Of a DNA stretch of 64,000 nt, positions 21,378 through 54,164 are shown piece by piece. The DNA is from an uncultured SAR86 cluster bacterium. Lineage in GTDB: Bacteria > Pseudomonadota > Gammaproteobacteria > Magnimaribacterales > D2472. Both the position numbers and the translations under genes were made by a program. The stretch covers positions 22,880-86,879 of the forward strand of contig CACLXS010000004.1 in assembly GCA_902610905.1 (NCBI GenBank), written 5' to 3'. Numbering within the stretch: position 1 is the stretch's first letter; every line of letters begins with the position of its first letter. Below the pieces are notes generated by a model. It had not been told where the DNA came from, did not search any database, and saw nothing but the letters and a program-made list of their open reading frames with translations.

Positions 21378-22655
21378 ATGAATCTCACTGAAATAAAAGT
21401 TAAACCAATTAACGAATTGGTTGACATAGCATCCGAGCTTGGTCTTGAAGATGTTGGCAGACTCAAAAAACAAGAAATAATTTTTAGAATTTTCAAACAT
21501 AAAGCTTCTGAAGGTATTGATATTTATGGCGGTGGAGTTTTAGAAATACTTAACGATGGGTTTGGTTTTCTTCGTTCTCCAGAGGGTTCATATTGTGCAG
21601 GTGAAGATGATATATATGTTTCTCCAAGTCAGATAAGAAAATTTGGTCTTAGAAAAGGGGATTCTATTGCTGGTAAAATTAGAACACCAAAAGATAAAGA
21701 GAGATACTTTGCTTTAATTCAGGTAGACACTATCAATGGTGAAGAGCCTAAAAATACAAAAAATAAGATTTTATTTGAAAATTTAACACCTCTTTTCCCC
21801 AATGAAAGATTAATTCTTGAACAGGGAAGCGGCTCTAATGAAGATCTTTCATCACGAATTATTGACCTGATAGCACCAATCGGTAAAGGTCAGCGTGGAT
21901 TAATCGTTTCTCCACCTAAAGCTGGTAAGACACTAATGCTTCAGAGCATAGCTCATTCTATTAAAAGTAATAATCCAGAAGTTGAATTAATAGTATTGCT
22001 TATCGATGAGAGACCAGAAGAGGTTACAGAGATGTCAAGAACTGTTAAAGGAGAGGTTGTTGCAAGTACATTTGACGAGCACCCAAGCAGACATGTTCAA
22101 GTAGCAAACATGGTTATTGAGAAAGCTAAAAGGTTAGTTGAACATAAAAAAGATGTTGTTATTTTGTTGGACTCAATTACTAGACTTGGAAGAGCATATA
22201 ACTCAGTTCAACCAGCATCTGGAAAAATACTAAGTGGGGGTGTTGATTCAAATGCTCTAGAAAGACCAAAAAGATTCTTTGGAGCAGCAAGAAATCTAGA
22301 AGAGGCAGGCAGCCTAACTATTTTAGCAACTGCTTTAGTTGAAACTGGATCTAAAATGGATGAAGTTATTTACGAAGAATTTAAAGGTACAGGTAATATG
22401 GAGATCCATTTGGAAAGAAAAATTGCAGAAAAACGTATCTTTCCAGCAATTAATATTAGAAGATCGGGCACACGAAGAGAGGACTTGTTAACTTCAGAGG
22501 ACGAACTCCAAAGAATGTGGGTTCTTAGAAAAATCCTTGATGAAATGGAAGATGCACAATCAATACAGTTCTTAATTGACAGGCTTAAGTCACATAAAAC
22601 AAACGACGAGTTTTTTACTTCGATGAAAGCTGGAAATGGGAAAAAATCTAAATAA
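21378..22655 (+). CDS. rho: Transcription termination factor Rho
   Basis: [42 protein letters not shown]. Confidence 0.98.
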
Positions 22656-47408: not shown

Positions 47409-50000
47409 TTAGTTTCTATACTCAAAACTTATGCCAATAATTCTTCCTCTTGGATCATGAACCCTTGTATCAAAGCTAAAATCTGGAGCATCGTAAAGTC
47501 TCGGTGCTGCTTCATCAAAAACATTAATGACTGATAGCTTGATATCAGTTTCACCTCTATTTGTAATTAACAATTTTTTTACTGAAAGGTCGTGAATCAA
47601 AAAAGAATCAACATAATTGTTATATCCATATGCTGTTCCAAGACTATTGATCGGTCGCTCATTACTATATCCATCAATATATCGTGAATTAAAGTTAAAA
47701 TCGTAATCTTGATATTTCCAATTTAAAAAAGCATTGATTCTATTTTTAGGAAGAGAATGGGTATTAGTATCGTAATTAAATTTACCAACTCTATTTATCA
47801 TAATTTCACCATCTTCATTTCCAAGAGCTGGTGTAAGAAATTCTATTAAAGTTGTTGAATTTATTGATAGTGATAGATTTCCAAATTTATCTGAGCTTGC
47901 TATAAGCCTATTAAAACTTAAATCAAGTCCTGAAACTTCAGTTGACTCTTCATTAAAATAGGTTGTGGTAACCCCAATTAAATCACCACTAGAATTTCTT
48001 GTAATGCTTGGACCATTTGGGTCTGTGTTAAGTATTACTTGTGCACTTTGAGATTCAATTTTATTTTTGTAATCGATATTCCAATAATCAATGCTTAGTC
48101 TATTTTTTTGATTTTCAAAAATAAGTCCAATATTTAAATTCTTAGAGGTTGCAGGCTTAAGGTTCGGGTTGCCGATTTGTGCTTGCCTCACAAACGGTGA
48201 ATTGCCATTAAAATCTCTTACGCTTCCAAGGTTAATATCACTTGAAAACATTTGTGCCATGGAGGGCATAGAAAAAGATGAACTTTTAGAAGCTCTTAAA
48301 GTTATATTTTCAGATGCGATATATTTAAAAGAGATTTTAGGGTCAAATGATGAGTCATTCTCAAACTCTTCAAATCTTCCAGCAATCTTGATATCAATAT
48401 TTTCTATTGGCTTGGGCTGAATTTCAAAAAAACCAGCATATTTACTTCTATTTTTTGAGACGTTTATACCTCCACCTAAAAAGAACAGGTCTGCTGATTT
48501 AATAATCTTGCCATCTGCATCAAATTGAGCTCTGCTAACATCATCATATGAAATTTTAAGCTCCTCATCATTCAATTGAAGACCATATGCTATTTCGTAG
48601 CTATTCATATTAGTTCTAAATATAAAATCAAGAGTTGTTAAAGATGCTTCTTTTGAAGAAACCTCAGCACCTCTTACATAATCAATTAATTCTTGAGAAT
48701 TCTGCGTTGAATCAAAAATATTCCAATACATAAGATTTCCATTAGATTGTCCCATGGTTGTGCCATTTAATGCTTCTAGGAACCTTGAATCGATAATATC
48801 CGGCCTGTAATGATCATTAGAGTGACTGCTAATAGTTAAAGAAGCTTCTAGTTCAGTGCTTTCATTAATATTAGTATTGATTGTCTGACTAAGATTATAT
48901 TGTTTTATATCCTTTGGAGAATATGGGGAATCAAATTCAGATCCAAGAGGACGTCCATACCAAGTAACTGGAACATTAAAAGGATTACCTCCTTGATTAG
49001 GTTGAATTTGTCTCGATAAAAAAGGAAGAGCAGGGTATGAGGGTGACTGAGGGTTATCATTTACTTTAACCGCTGATCCCATAAAGGTTATCTCATAAAC
49101 ATAACTGCTTCTTTCAAACAATAAATTGGCATATGCTTTGGAATGATCTTCATCATTCACTATGTTAAATCTGGTACCATATAAGAATCTGCAACGAGAC
49201 CCATCTAATATGCCACCATTTGCCTCACATTGAGGGTCAGGTACAAATTGATTAGCATCATAATTGCCTGAATATAAACCAGTACTAACAATATCATCAG
49301 CAGAAATCTTAAAGGTTTTACCTAAGCCGCTAAGACCAAGCTCTGCTATTCCAGGTATTTCAGATGCAGACAGAGCTGATCTTTCTAGAATGCTAAGACC
49401 AATTACATAGTTACCATTTTTATACTTAGATCCTAGCAATAACCCTAAGGATTTATCACTCTGACTATAATTTGAAGTTTCAAAGTGATTAATTCTTAAT
49501 TTAAATCCTTCAAAATCTTTCTGAGTTAAAACATTTACAACACCAGCAACGGCGTCAGACCCATACAATGAGGTGGCTCCTTCTTTTAAAACTTCAATTT
49601 GTTTGATTGCTATTTCAGGAACTATGTTTACATCAATATATCCTTCGCCTTGATTAGAGGGTGTTCCAGCAAAAGTATGTCTCTTTGAATTAAGTAGCAA
49701 CAGAGTAGAGGAGTGTTCTAAACCTCTTAAGGTTATTGAGGCCATTCCTTGATCAACTCCCTCAAGTGCATTTGTTTGGAAATGTGAACCAGATGATGAT
49801 GTTAGGTATTTACTAATTTCTGCAAAATTAGAAATATTAAATTTTTCAAAATCTTCTTTAGTTATAACATTTACTGGCGAGGCGTCTTTTTCTGAATTAT
49901 TAATTAATGACCCAGTTGTAACTATCTCTTCAACATTCGAGTTAGTCATGATGAGTGGACTCAATAGTAATAAGTATATGAATTTAATATGTTTAATCAT
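47409..50000 (-). CDS. TonB-dependent receptor, substrate unknown
   Basis: TonB box EEIVTTGS, plug IEVLKEGATSLYGSDAVAGVVN, GNPNLKP, C-term PRGR..; ATG at 50000 preferred. Confidence 0.9.
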   Translation of the reverse strand: MIKHIKFIYLLLLSPLIMTNSNVEEIVTTGSLINNSEKDASPVNVITKEDFEKFNISNFAEISKYLTSSSGSHFQTNALEGVDQGMASITLRGLEHSSTLLLLNSKRHTFAGTPSNQGEGYIDVNIVPEIAIKQIEVLKEGATSLYGSDAVAGVVNVLTQKDFEGFKLRINHFETSNYSQSDKSLGLLLGSKYKNGNYVIGLSILERSALSASEIPGIAELGLSGLGKTFKISADDIVSTGLYSGNYDANQFVPDPQCEANGGILDGSRCRFLYGTRFNIVNDEDHSKAYANLLFERSSYVYEITFMGSAVKVNDNPQSPSYPALPFLSRQIQPNQGGNPFNVPVTWYGRPLGSEFDSPYSPKDIKQYNLSQTINTNINESTELEASLTISSHSNDHYRPDIIDSRFLEALNGTTMGQSNGNLMYWNIFDSTQNSQELIDYVRGAEVSSKEASLTTLDFIFRTNMNSYEIAYGLQLNDEELKISYDDVSRAQFDADGKIIKSADLFFLGGGINVSKNRSKYAGFFEIQPKPIENIDIKIAGRFEEFENDSSFDPKISFKYIASENITLRASKSSSFSMPSMAQMFSSDINLGSVRDFNGNSPFVRQAQIGNPNLKPATSKNLNIGLIFENQKNRLSIDYWNIDYKNKIESQSAQVILNTDPNGPSITRNSSGDLIGVTTTYFNEESTEVSGLDLSFNRLIASSDKFGNLSLSINSTTLIEFLTPALGNEDGEIMINRVGKFNYDTNTHSLPKNRINAFLNWKYQDYDFNFNSRYIDGYSNERPINSLGTAYGYNNYVDSFLIHDLSVKKLLITNRGETDIKLSVINVFDEAAPRLYDAPDFSFDTRVHDPRGRIIGISFEYRN

Positions 50001-50016
50001 GTTATGACGCAAAAAA

Positions 50017-50547: not shown

Positions 50548-52779
50548 TTAGTAAGTTAAATTAAATTTAATTCCATAGTTTCTTCCCGGAAGAGGAACTT
50601 CATTCTTAACAAAAGAAGCATGATTTCTTGCAACTTCATCTAGAAGATTTCTTCCGAATAGTGAAACTTTAAGCTTACTTTTTCCACTTAAATCAAATGT
50701 CTTAGTCAGCCTTGTGTCCAGCATTTGATATCCAGCAGTAGCTGTTTCGCCTTCACCAACATCATTTTGTTTTTCAACATCTTTTAAATGTAACTTAAAG
50801 ACTATGTCATCTTGAGCATATGAAAGTAAGTAAACATTTCTTGCAGGATTTATTCTTGGTACGTTATGACCATCTGTAAATTGAGCATTTACAACATCTC
50901 TACCAAAAGATAATGTCATTTCACCAGCACCCAAATCAAATGTTCTTCCAAATTCGATTTCATATCCATCAAACTCAGCATCTTCTTGAACATAATTAGC
51001 ATGAATGAGATTGCCATGACCATGGTCGTCTCCATGATCATCATCGTCATGATGCTCGTCTTCATCTTCATGATGCTCTTCCTCATTATGCTCATCTTCA
51101 TGACCTTCGTCTTCATCAATTAGAGCAATATAGTTATCTACATCATTAATAAAGAAGCTTGCATATGCAAAATATTCTCCGTTATCAAAATTTAATGAAA
51201 TATCAAAATTATTTGAAGTTTCAGAAGTTAGAGTAGGATCTCCTACTTCAAATCTACCTGTAGCATTATGAGGACCATTCATAAATAATTCAATTACAGA
51301 TGGCAGCCTCTCTACGCTAGAATAGCCGAGGTTTAACTCTAATGTATCAGAAAGATCTCTGCCAATACTGACAGCAAAGTTTGAAACATCATCATCTATA
51401 GTAAAATTATCTACATCGCCATGATCTTCATCAGTAACACTTCCAGTTCTTGTAACTTGATCTAATCTAATTCCCAAATCTACATGAAACATATCAAAAT
51501 CTTGACCTACAAAATAACCAAGTGTTAGCACTTCATTGTTTGCGGGATTCATGAATGCCTCTTCTCCAACTATTGAAGAATCTTCATCAATATAATTAAA
51601 TGATAATTTTTGAGTTCTTATGTCATTTGAGATATCAAAAATCGTACTATATTCAGTGGCATTGTTAGCAAAAACTGTTGGAGCATGTTCTTCATGTTCC
51701 TCTTCGCCTTCATGTTCATCATGTCCCTCTTCTTCGGCATGCGCTTCAGTTAAGGTGTAGTCAGTATCTCTATATGTATAGTCAATTTTGTTAATTAAAT
51801 TGCCATTGAGATTATAGGAACCTTTTATAGTAAAGCTTTCAGAATCTGTTGTTGAGAAAATTCTTTCCTCACCATGTTCATCGTGATGCTCATCTTCATC
51901 ATGCTCATCTTCGTCATGATGATCTTCATCACCATGCTCATCTCCATGTTCGTCACCATGGAAAGGGATTCCATATAAACTTTCAAGGTTGTCCACTGAA
52001 ACACCAACATAACCCCAGTCACCTGCTCTTGAAATACCAAATTTAGTAGCCTCTACAGCAAAGTCAGAATTATTAACAAATCCGAGATTTTCTTCATGCT
52101 CATCTTCGTCGTGATGATCTTCATTACCATGATCATCGTGTTCTTCCTCTTCATGCATTATCGCACCATTAGGAATATCATAATTTCCAAATTCAGTATT
52201 TTTATAACCAACATTGACGTTAAAGCCATTGAAATTATTTTTAAAGTTAATGAATTCAGATGAACCATCATTCACTGATTGAGTTTCATAACCAACTTTC
52301 AATTCAGGAAGCTCGTAATTCATTGCTGCGATGAAGTCATCTACAACATTAATGATTCCACCAATAGTTCCATTGGCATAGAGTAATGATGATGGACCCT
52401 TAACAATTTCTATTTGTTCAATATCATTAAGATCAACATCATTTAAATGATCGGCGCCAAGACCAGAAACATCTCTATTCACCATTCCATTTTTTAGAAT
52501 TTTTACTCTAGGTCCTGACATGCCTCTAATTATTGGCTGTCCAACAGCAGCACCATAATCTGCAATAGAAACTCCAAGATAGCTATCAATAGCATCTCCT
52601 AGGCTTGTTGTTGCATCATCGATAATCTCATCGCCGTCTATAACGTACAATGGATTTGTAATTTCGGTTGTGTCTATCAAAGCAGACGTAACCACGATAA
52701 TTTCTTCAACATCTTGTGAAGCGATTTCGTTTGTGTGTATAGCACCTAATATTATTAATGTGCTTAAAAATTTTTTCAT
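50548..52779 (-). CDS. ZnuD-like TonB-dependent metal receptor with His/Asp/Glu-rich loops
   Basis: Plug QPIIRGMSGPRV...DVS....DH, KGPSSLLY, ELFMNGPHNATGRFEVG, RNHASF...PGRN resemble the ZnuD family; four His-acidic tracts; SD AGGAGG. Confidence 0.85.
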   Translation of the reverse strand: MKKFLSTLIILGAIHTNEIASQDVEEIIVVTSALIDTTEITNPLYVIDGDEIIDDATTSLGDAIDSYLGVSIADYGAAVGQPIIRGMSGPRVKILKNGMVNRDVSGLGADHLNDVDLNDIEQIEIVKGPSSLLYANGTIGGIINVVDDFIAAMNYELPELKVGYETQSVNDGSSEFINFKNNFNGFNVNVGYKNTEFGNYDIPNGAIMHEEEEHDDHGNEDHHDEDEHEENLGFVNNSDFAVEATKFGISRAGDWGYVGVSVDNLESLYGIPFHGDEHGDEHGDEDHHDEDEHDEDEHHDEHGEERIFSTTDSESFTIKGSYNLNGNLINKIDYTYRDTDYTLTEAHAEEEGHDEHEGEEEHEEHAPTVFANNATEYSTIFDISNDIRTQKLSFNYIDEDSSIVGEEAFMNPANNEVLTLGYFVGQDFDMFHVDLGIRLDQVTRTGSVTDEDHGDVDNFTIDDDVSNFAVSIGRDLSDTLELNLGYSSVERLPSVIELFMNGPHNATGRFEVGDPTLTSETSNNFDISLNFDNGEYFAYASFFINDVDNYIALIDEDEGHEDEHNEEEHHEDEDEHHDDDDHGDDHGHGNLIHANYVQEDAEFDGYEIEFGRTFDLGAGEMTLSFGRDVVNAQFTDGHNVPRINPARNVYLLSYAQDDIVFKLHLKDVEKQNDVGEGETATAGYQMLDTRLTKTFDLSGKSKLKVSLFGRNLLDEVARNHASFVKNEVPLPGRNYGIKFNLTY
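51001..52155 (-). repeat. Four low-complexity CAT/GAT/GAA-codon tracts encoding His/Asp/Glu loops
   Basis: Tracts at ~51001-51117, ~51685-51741, ~51867-51960 and ~52090-52155, e.g. HGDEHGDEHGDEDHHDEDEHDEDEHHDEH. Confidence 0.85.
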
Positions 52780-52781
52780 AA

Positions 52782-52847
52782 GAACTCCTCCTATAAATAA
52801 AAAATAAAAATTTAAAATATAAAAAATTTATTTTTTTGGTGGAGCTC
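52782..52847 (-). promoter_or_regulatory. Predicted mRNA hairpin pairing the RAPP codons with the receptor Shine-Dalgarno
   Basis: mRNA GAGCUCCACC (52847-52838) pairs with GGAGGAGUUC (52791-52782): 9 of 10 pairs including one G-U; can extend through A-tract/U-tract pairing. Confidence 0.65.
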
Positions 52848-53106
52848 GAGATAGATAGTTACTCTGATTTTTTAAAGAAGAATTATCAGGGGCTAATTCT
52901 TCAACAAAAGAAATTTGAATTAATTCACTGACTTCAGAATCAGCATTTTGAAGATCAAAAGCTTTATTTTCACAAAGTTGACATTCAACAATAGATTCAG
53001 ACTGATGCTCATCAATATGATCATGAAGTAAAGTATCAGCAGAAAGAGATGCAATGAAAAAAATTCCAAAAAATAAAATTAGTTTTGATTTGATATATTT
53101 ATTCAT
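52828..53106 (-). CDS. DUF2946/CruR/CutF-like leader peptide with CxxC and C-terminal RAPP arrest motif
   Basis: Hydrophobic N-term, HDHIDEH, CQLC, ends YLSRAPPKK; 48 bp upstream of a metal TBDR. Confidence 0.75.
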   Translation of the reverse strand: MNKYIKSKLILFFGIFFIASLSADTLLHDHIDEHQSESIVECQLCENKAFDLQNADSEVSELIQISFVEELAPDNSSLKNQSNYLSRAPPKK

Positions 53107-53111
53107 GCAAA

Positions 53112-54164
53112 TTAATGTTTGAGACAGACCAACCCTTTAATGTTACCTGACTTAAGATCAGCAAGTGTATCACTTGCTTGTGAGGCAGGTCTAGTCTCTA
53201 CTTCTATAGGTTCAATTTTACCAGATCGTACAAGTTCCATAAGCTCATTCATCTCTTTTAAACTTCCTACGTATGCACCTTTAATAGTCCTAGCTGTAAA
53301 AGTATGAAGAGGTAGTTGGAGGTTAAAATTACCTCCAATTAATCCAACTAGAATATACAAACCGCCTTTATTAATACCAAATAGACCATACCCAAAAGAT
53401 ATTGAGCTTTGTGATCCAACAAAATCAATAATTTTTGTAACTTTGCCTCCAGATAATCTTATGATCTCTTCAGAAGCATTTTCACTTTTTGAATTTATTA
53501 CATTATTTGCACCAGCTTTTTTAGCAACATCTAGCTTTTTATCATCAATGTCTATAACTATTGTCTTAACGTTATATGCTGCTTGTGCAATTTTTAATGC
53601 TAACAATCCCATTCCACCAGCACTAATTATTACAATACTTTCACCGTCCTTGATTTCTGCTTTCTTTAAAGCACTATATGCAGTTAAGCCTCTGCATGCA
53701 TAACTTCCGGCTAATTCTTCTGGAGTTTCTCCAGCATCAAAAAGATATTTTGCATCTTTTACTAAAACGTATTCACCATAACCACCGTCAACAGAAACAC
53801 CAATATTTTCAGCAGTGAAAGGTGAACAATAGTGCTCCATATCATTTTGGCATTCATTACAGCTGCCACAACCAATCCAAGGATATACAACGTATTTTTT
53901 GCCAATTTGTATGTTTGTAACTTTGTCTCCAACTTCTACAACTTCTCCAAAAACCTCATGGCCCATTGCTAGGTTCTCAGTCACTCTTGATGGAATATGA
54001 GTTTTATCACCCAAGTCAAAATAACCATCATGAATATGTATATCTGTATGGCAGACACCGCACGAGATTGTCTTTATTAGAATCTCTTTACCCGTAGGAG
54101 AGGGCTCATCTATTTGTTGTTCTTCAAGAGGTTCCCCATTTTTAACAACTTTATATGACTTCAT
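53112..54164 (-). CDS. Zinc-dependent alcohol dehydrogenase (MDR family)
   Basis: CGVCHTD, GHE, structural CGSCNEC...C, Rossmann-like SAGGMG. Confidence 0.92.
   Translation of the reverse strand: MKSYKVVKNGEPLEEQQIDEPSPTGKEILIKTISCGVCHTDIHIHDGYFDLGDKTHIPSRVTENLAMGHEVFGEVVEVGDKVTNIQIGKKYVVYPWIGCGSCNECQNDMEHYCSPFTAENIGVSVDGGYGEYVLVKDAKYLFDAGETPEELAGSYACRGLTAYSALKKAEIKDGESIVIISAGGMGLLALKIAQAAYNVKTIVIDIDDKKLDVAKKAGANNVINSKSENASEEIIRLSGGKVTKIIDFVGSQSSISFGYGLFGINKGGLYILVGLIGGNFNLQLPLHTFTARTIKGAYVGSLKEMNELMELVRSGKIEPIEVETRPASQASDTLADLKSGNIKGLVCLKH

Follow-up and report, generated by a model that had tools for sequence, protein, structure and literature searches.

How might a short exported leader peptide ending in Arg-Ala-Pro-Pro (RAPP) set the expression of the TonB-dependent receptor encoded directly downstream? 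The question is raised by a locus on contig CACLXS010000004.1 of an uncultured SAR86 cluster bacterium, contained in a stretch of 64,000 nucleotides that is referred to here as the window. On the minus strand of the window, a leader open reading frame (ORF) is followed by a receptor gene with its own Shine-Dalgarno (SD) sequence, and an earlier note on this DNA had proposed that the codons of the putative arrest motif are themselves the anti-SD of the receptor gene. Our analysis favors, with a probability of roughly 0.6, a CruR-like metal-sensing arrest leader that is coupled to the receptor by an SD-masking hairpin, the anti-SD being the arrest codons. More tentatively, at somewhat less than even odds, we propose that a 12-nt stretch does two jobs, encoding the RAPP arrest peptide and serving as the RNA anti-SD, with synonymous sites selected to match the SD flank of each lineage.

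The hairpin in the window

In the window, GAGCUCCACC (52847-52838) lies antiparallel to GGAGGAGUUC (52791-52782), and nine of the ten positions pair, in the order G-C, A-U, G-U, C-G, U-A, C-G, C-G, A.A, C-G, and C-G. GAGCUCCACC comprises positions 2-3 of the Arg codon, the Ala codon, the first Pro codon, and positions 1-2 of the second Pro codon. The pairing that the earlier note had described between the RAPP codons and the receptor SD, with one G-U pair and one A.A mismatch, was reproduced letter by letter. The minimum-energy fold is exactly this stem plus an A/U helix formed by AAAAAAUAAA (52836-52827) and UUUAUUUUUU (52808-52799), in agreement with the further pairing that had been expected to extend the stem. 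The hairpin segment, taken from position -6 relative to the Arg codon to the AUG, has a folding energy of -16.4 kcal/mol compared with -7.3 +/- 2.3 kcal/mol for its shuffles (z -3.94; 0 of 300 as stable), all fold z-scores being relative to dinucleotide shuffles. For a 101-nt stretch the z-score is -2.1, and 8 of 200 shuffles are as good. The SD core is paired with the RAPP codons with a probability of 0.998.

A strong SD is rare in this genome. Among 901 crude ORFs of at least 120 aa, only 74 have GGAG at positions -17 to -4 of the first AUG, and the receptor SD is the second most occluded of these 74 sites, with a probability of being unpaired, P(unpaired), of 0.002. Two further SD sites are equally occluded, at offset 10101 of C10 and offset 16031 of C7, both on the minus strand. 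As for the codons of the motif, the Arg is encoded by CGA (52846-52848), which accounts for 5% of the Arg codons in the genome, compared with 74% for AGA. The first base of this codon is outside the stem, and close relatives switch among CGA, AGA, and AGG.

Conservation of the leader and the hairpin

All comparisons were made among loci within one order. The receptor is present in 205 of the 266 genomes of the order, and in 50 of 61 relatives in a narrower search. A total of 110 loci were fetched, namely the 30 best full-length matches and 20 more from the search of 61 relatives, and 60 from the order search, which were picked to spread over genera and are not a random sample. One locus (L024) holds only the 3' part of the receptor gene, and the other 109 hold its 5' end. 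In 102 of these, a script recognized an R[AG]PP leader; five, all in genus g9, have QAPP in its place, and one (L027) has no leader. L091 carries RAPP but was missed by the start-codon rule of the script, and the leader of L017 is cut by the contig start and was left unscored. The statistics given for 102 loci (20 genera) exclude L091 and the five QAPP loci, whereas the test of codons against the SD flank includes them (108 loci).

The arrangement of leader followed by receptor is found in 107 of the 109 loci, the exceptions being L027 and L017. In L027 (G031, genus g8), the receptor is 59% identical, the upstream region is different, and the SD is a weak AAGGGG; other g8 genomes, unlike L027, retain the leader. 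The spacer between leader and receptor ranges from 32 to 62 nt in the 102 loci. In the loci of genus g1, the hairpin loop is built of AAUUUUU-type repeats of varying copy number (the spacer of L010 reaches 62 nt), and the arms remain constant while these repeats expand.

The predicted hairpin is itself widespread. Its segment has a z-score below -2 in 17 of 20 genus representatives (mean -3.34), so that the folding check proposed with the original claim found a thermodynamically favored hairpin across the order as well as in the window. Occlusion of the SD core to a P(unpaired) below 0.2 is predicted for 82 of the 102 loci. The core pairs with the RAPP codons with a probability above 0.5 in 84 loci, and with the last sense codon and the stop codon in 11 (genera g16 and g21). 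The pairing registers vary with the SD flank, and at least five were seen. Specifically, GAGCUCC pairs with GGAGUU[CU], (A)CCUCC(U) with (A)GGAGG(U), CC-N-CCUU with AAGG-A-GG, UCUUAA or UCCUAA (Ser-stop) with UUAGGAG or UUAGGA, and CCAAAAAA with UUUUUUGG.

Codon choice in the motif tracks the SD flank. We grouped the loci into 45 sequence clusters at a cut-off of at least 50% identity over the 60 residues preceding the motif. GGAG-U goes with the Ala codon GCU in 12 of 13 clusters, versus 7 of 32 others (Fisher p 1.8e-5), and GGAG-G goes with CCU as the first Pro codon in 20 of 26 clusters, versus 1 of 19 others (Fisher p 1.9e-6). The four-fold sites of the receptor gene are saturated at or below 80% protein identity (0.35-0.48 versus 0.39 expected), and codon usage in the receptor gene is equal between the SD-flank groups (GCT 0.44 versus 0.40, CCT 0.47 versus 0.44). 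Hence, shared inheritance and codon bias are poor explanations of the link between codon and SD flank. In 15 of 20 genera, arrest regions form more stable duplexes with their own SDs than with those of other genera (Wilcoxon p 0.006), and none of 20000 permutations at the genus level did as well. The native codons also do better on average than synonymous recodings, with a mean percentile of 0.32 over genera and a value below 0.5 in 16 of the 20 (Wilcoxon p 0.003).

The leader peptide has the architecture of an arrest peptide. R[AG]PP occurs a single time among all six-frame ORFs of at least 30 aa in the 1.02-Mb assembly, and this occurrence is in the leader. It agrees with the depletion of R[AG]PP-type motifs from proteomes that has been reported (PMC12992588). 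The only residues invariant in all 28 aligned leader orthologues are C42, R87, A88, P89, and P90, although these orthologues are 16-35% identical to the leader of the window, with one close relative at 90%. A CxxC motif was scored in 80 of the 102 loci. In all 80, the second Cys precedes the Arg of RAPP by 41-43 positions, with 40-42 residues in between (41 in the window). Among the 22 loci without a scored CxxC, 15 are unscorable, only a leader fragment of 5-6 aa having been recovered, and seven are full-length without the second Cys, five of them in genus g4 (L025, L067-L070) and two in g13 (L035, L036). The g4 and g13 leaders (e.g., SCEYFENK, ECQYNENK, and ECEYTENF) retain the first Cys, RAPP, and the hairpin. 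The motif is followed by one to five residues across the 102 loci, and the window leader ends in SRAPPKK-stop. A His/Asp/Glu-rich stretch is found in most leader orthologues, but its position is not invariant.

In CruR, a DUF2946 protein of Bordetella pertussis, RAPP is needed for downstream expression (PMC9426467), and toeprinting in vitro showed an arrest of the peptide in which the P and A sites are occupied by its two Pro codons (PMC12992588). The Pfam DUF2946 profile found no match in the window leader at E-values up to 0.1 and none in the 28 orthologues at E-values up to 1. A search for protein relatives of the leader gave 172 matches. Those listed, 120 in number, share 85-99% identity and have either no name or the label 'hypothetical protein'; none of these 120 carries a precomputed Pfam domain or is a DUF2946 member. 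Because the DUF2946 profile does not recognize this leader family, the leader is CruR-like by architecture and is not a demonstrated member of the family.

The proposed switch and its alternatives

As the hairpin is kept across the order and the RAPP codons pair with the SD, stalling of a ribosome probably turns on translation of the receptor. In mRNA free of ribosomes, the RAPP codons would pair with the receptor SD and the Lys and stop codons with the U-run before it, and the receptor would be poorly translated. A ribosome translating the leader would arrest with Pro89 in the P site and Pro90 in the A site, an assignment borrowed from the toeprinting of CruR (PMC12992588). The footprint of a ribosome stalled in this way, at about -12 to +15 nt, would extend over 52854-52827 and take in the entire 5' arm, Lys and stop codons included. 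Between the last Pro codon and the G that begins the receptor SD there are 45 nt, the distance that the earlier note had estimated, and the SD indeed falls beyond this footprint; it would thus become single-stranded and allow a second ribosome to initiate on the receptor gene. The His-rich/CxxC segment lies 41 residues before RAPP and therefore should be just out of the exit tunnel at the time of arrest, where metal bound by the nascent segment may modulate the arrest. Co-translational sensing of copper has been proposed for CruR (PMC9426467), in parallel to the leader sensing considered here. We infer a metal as the signal and a sign of response that fits an uptake receptor: without metal, the ribosome would arrest, the SD would be open, and the receptor would be made; with metal, the arrest would be relieved, the hairpin would re-form, and the receptor would be off.

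Folding calculations for the window are consistent with this scheme. The P(unpaired) of the SD rises from 0.002 in the free segment to 0.85 when folding is restricted to the RNA 3' of the footprint. It is 0.074 when the footprint is forced to be unpaired and the far-upstream leader is retained, in which case the SD finds other partners. The downstream RNA was folded alone because pairing around a ribosome was regarded as unrealistic.

A number of observations weigh against this reading, and we present them here and with the alternatives to which they lend weight. Three genus representatives have weak hairpins, with z-scores of +0.63 (L043, g15), -0.66 (L086, g22), and -0.91 (L031, g13), and 7 of the 102 loci lack pairing of the SD core with either motif or tail. 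The predicted opening is smaller in the orthologues. Their median P(unpaired) of the SD is 0.002 in the free state and 0.32 (downstream RNA only) or 0.29 (footprint constraint) in the stalled state, and only 26 of the 102 loci go from less than 0.2 in the free state to more than 0.5 in the stalled one, with the downstream RNA folded alone.

Among the alternatives, two stand about level, and we consider each of them unlikely. The first is control of the type known from Bordetella, in which the stalled ribosome would block Rho, its release would lead to Rho termination before or inside the receptor gene, and the hairpin would be secondary or irrelevant. Rho-dependent control is the precedent of the CruR family (PMC9426467), the genome has a rho gene scoring above the cut-off, and the last ~80 nt of the leader contain 20.5% C versus 7.7% G, a weak echo of the C-over-G bubble of cruR. 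The absolute C content at the leader end is nevertheless low. Moreover, the spacer is an A/U-rich 48 nt from leader stop to receptor start, containing one C and five G, and is short across the order, whereas that of B. pertussis is 162 nt long and G+C-rich, with the stop point of termination mapped to the intergenic region (PMC9426467). Long spacers are typical of the CruR family and were held to be incompatible with translational coupling in the same report. The Rho model also leaves unexplained why motif codons track the SD flank and why the receptor SD ranks second of 74 in occlusion. The earlier note had set the hairpin against Rho-dependent control, and this part of it is not established, given the rho gene and the modest C-over-G excess at the leader 3' end. 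The hairpin and Rho models can both hold, because receptor mRNA left untranslated is open to Rho polarity. It is plausible that the two act in succession, with masking of translation as the first step and Rho polarity on the unread receptor message as the next.

The second alternative, to which we give the same low credence, is that the hairpin is incidental and without regulatory effect: in an AT-rich genome, C-rich Ala/Pro codons and the A-runs of the Lys and stop codons simply face a G-rich SD that follows a U-run. Ala-Pro-Pro codons are C-rich and readily contain CUCC or CCUCC. In the window, synonymous recodings of SRAPPKK, tested against a tightened SD region, pair as well as the native codons (native -14.5 kcal/mol, null mean -15.4 kcal/mol, percentile 0.64), so that the complementarity there is largely inherent to RAPP codons opposite a strong SD. 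An earlier recoding test with a 20-nt SD region, which was dominated by poly-A/poly-U pairing, gave a median percentile of 0.34, with 2 of 47 loci at or below 0.05. Arrest regions and SDs swapped between genera still reach -8.4 kcal/mol, ~83% of the -10.1 kcal/mol of native duplexes. Eleven within-genus contrasts, chosen by SD-region distance alone, were not significant, five being favorable, three zero, and three unfavorable (sign test p 0.36). The p-values over clusters and genera are optimistic, because they take lineages as independent, which is true only insofar as synonymous sites are saturated. An incidental hairpin, however, would hardly reach a z-score below -2 in 17 of 20 genus representatives, nor would it account for the association between codon and SD flank at Fisher p-values of 1e-5 to 1e-6, with saturated sites and equal background codon usage. 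It also sits poorly with the strong SD of the receptor being among the most occluded of the few GGAG sites in the genome. The pairing therefore appears to be in part selected and in part free. The covariation across orthologues that had been suggested as a check is borne out between lineages, in the 45 clusters, but not by the contrasts within genera. Likewise, the idea that the same nucleotides encode the stall and form the switch gains from the hairpin, from the pairing in 84 of 102 loci, from the covariation, and from the position of the arm within the footprint, and is tempered by how much of the complementarity is built in.

A third alternative, plain translational coupling, we rate as less likely than either of these. 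Each leader ribosome reaching the stop codon would open the stem, or would reinitiate 48 nt further on, and neither arrest nor metal sensing would be involved. The stop codon is 9 nt past the motif and within the 5' arm, and because any ribosome reaching it opens the stem, the stall-specificity of the proposed switch is an assumption. In genus g9, QAPP replaces RAPP in all five loci (L038, L103, L104, L105, and L106), and these leaders keep CxxC and an SD-masking hairpin of -14.6 to -17.3 kcal/mol. Either arrest tolerates Gln, or the hairpin is independent of arrest. This lineage is the observation that best fits both an incidental hairpin and coupling independent of a stall. What coupling alone leaves without a role is RAPP, the sole invariant stretch besides one Cys and unique in the genome; the fixed spacing between Cys and RAPP is likewise difficult to account for unless sensing takes place co-translationally while the ribosome is arrested. 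Finally, an intrinsic terminator was dropped as an explanation, as a consensus scan of 52400-53600 gave no terminator-like site.

The arrest leader with an SD-masking hairpin can be placed among known systems. CruR-BfrG of B. pertussis (Roy et al. 2022, PMC9426467) resembles it in having a small exported leader with CxxC, RAPP two to three residues from the C-terminus, and a conserved spacing between the two, the leader being first in the operon and followed by a TonB-dependent metal receptor. The differences, aside from spacer and DUF2946 membership, are that the intervening residues number 45 within one or two in the CruR family compared with 41 (40-42) here, and that a predicted SD-masking hairpin takes the place of the Rho-dependent termination described for CruR. 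Masking of an SD under the control of a stall has a precedent in DUF2946 itself. In Rhodobacter capsulatus, stalling on the DUF2946 leader CutF is proposed to melt an SD-shielding stem-loop of the next gene, cutO (PMC9973294, bioRxiv 10.1101/2025.02.05.636593). CutF differs in having CxxxC and a PPP motif, in its target, which is a multicopper oxidase for detoxification, and in the opposite sign of its response, copper inducing the stalling. By its published description, the CutF stem-loop occupies the region between cutF and cutO.

SecM-SecA of Escherichia coli, along with MifM and VemP, shares the C-terminal arrest sequence, the exported leader, and a stall that prevents an SD-sequestering stem-loop (PMC7897499). 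These leaders monitor secretion or insertion, have RAGP in a longer context, and act on Sec/YidC targets instead of a metal receptor. The features common to SecM, MifM, VemP, and CutF are found in the window as far as prediction and comparison go, that is, an SD-sequestering stem-loop, a stalled ribosome that would lie over one arm, and an SD outside it. ApdA, ApdP, and the surveyed RAPP/RGPP leaders have RAPP near the C-terminus and a signal sequence in common with the window leader, and RAPP leaders upstream of TonB-dependent receptors are reported to be widespread in Gram-negative bacteria (PMC12992588). In contrast to the window, structure prediction gave no SD-sequestering hairpin for ApcA, ApdA, and ApdP (PMC7897499). 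PMC12992588 makes no mention of a stem-loop, hairpin, Shine-Dalgarno, anti-SD, or secondary structure, and our literature search, supplementary tables aside, found no publication in which an anti-SD role is ascribed to RAPP codons.

Among RAPP leaders that precede a TonB-dependent receptor, the output mechanism has been worked out for CruR alone, as Rho-dependent termination, and the window locus would offer a compact alternative to it. If the dual role of the 12-nt stretch is real, an entire order of marine bacteria with streamlined genomes controls a metal receptor by translation alone, with neither a transcription factor nor a need for Rho, and the inherent complementarity of Ala-Pro-Pro codons to the SD (CUCC, CCUCC) may explain why RAPP leaders are easily wired to downstream genes. 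The locus would also illustrate how dual coding constrains synonymous sites, and it suggests how genomes of ~1 Mb with few regulators and few SD-led genes control the uptake of trace metals in the ocean. The natural variants, namely the five registers, the QAPP genus, the losses of the second Cys, and the expansions in loop length, provide a ready mutational series.

Layout of the locus and its presence in RNA libraries

The features of the locus are collected in Table 1. The assembly comprises 1.02 Mb in 27 contigs, with a G+C content of 32.6% and a completeness of 78.6%.

Table 1. Leader, hairpin, receptor, and other genes located in the window
Feature	Position	Strand	Basis or remark
Leader ORF, 92 aa	53106-52828 (including stop)	minus	ORF list; MNKYIKSKLILFFGIFFIASLSAD...ECQLCENK...SRAPPKK
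Signal-peptide-like N-terminus, residues 1-23 (Lys-rich start, hydrophobic core, SLS-AD)	53038..53106	minus	translation and 28-orthologue alignment, by inspection
His-rich stretch HDHIDEH, residues 28-34	53005..53025	minus	translation, alignment
CxxC motif, C42-Q-L-C45	52972..52983	minus	translation, alignment
Arg-Ala-Pro-Pro codons CGA GCU CCA CCA, putative arrest motif	52837..52848	minus	sequence
AAA AAA UAA (Lys, Lys, stop) after the RAPP codons	52836-52828	minus	sequence
5' arm, G+C part (anti-SD), GAGCUCC-A-CC	52838..52847	minus	minimum-energy folds
5' arm, A-rich part, AAAAAAUAAA (two Lys codons, stop, 1 nt)	52827..52836	minus	minimum-energy folds
3' arm, U-rich part, UUUAUUUUUU	52799..52808	minus	minimum-energy folds
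3' arm, G+C part, GG-A-GGAGUUC, contains receptor SD	52782..52791	minus	minimum-energy folds
Receptor SD, GGAGGAG	52791-52785	minus	sequence; receptor AUG at 52779
TonB-dependent receptor, 743 aa, His/Asp/Glu-rich loops	50548..52779	minus	Pfam Plug and TonB_dep_Rec_b-barrel
MerC-family membrane protein, 134 aa	50078..50482	minus	Pfam MerC, E 1.9e-24; next gene after receptor
Second TonB-dependent receptor, 867 aa, weak CirA/FepA-like matches	47409-50012	minus	after MerC-family gene
Zinc-type alcohol dehydrogenase gene	54164-53112	minus	upstream of leader
rho gene	21381..22628	plus	TIGR00767, 693.5 bits, above cut-off (converted from G000:C4:44260-45507)

The best NCBIfam match of the receptor, out of 21 families, is ZnuD (NF038289), with 213.1 bits and an E-value of 8.4e-63. 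Because this score is below the curated cut-off of 950 bits for that family, the receptor is ZnuD-like by profile score and not a ZnuD equivalog. The MerC-family gene, judging from its position, probably belongs to the operon of the receptor. On the upstream side, the leader AUG is 5 nt past the stop codon of the alcohol dehydrogenase gene. The consensus scan of 52400-53600 gave four promoter-like sites, none convincing, compared with 6.8 expected; the leader may therefore be cotranscribed with the alcohol dehydrogenase gene, or its promoter may be inside that gene.

Marine metatranscriptome assemblies of at least 12 studies contain the locus. Specifically, 17 RNA-library runs include 41-81% of the sampled words of 52000-53400, where the contigs show presence and not transcript ends or levels. 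A contig of run X1 breaks at 52783-52825, flagged as a skipped repeat, and X2 and X8 cover only parts. One contig of run X5 spans 52318-52855 and thus joins the RAPP codons, the spacer, and part of the receptor gene; as DNA is possible in such libraries, it is a weak hint of a leader-receptor operon. The labels of the RNA-library assemblies in which this stretch occurs are marine, seawater, or salt marsh.

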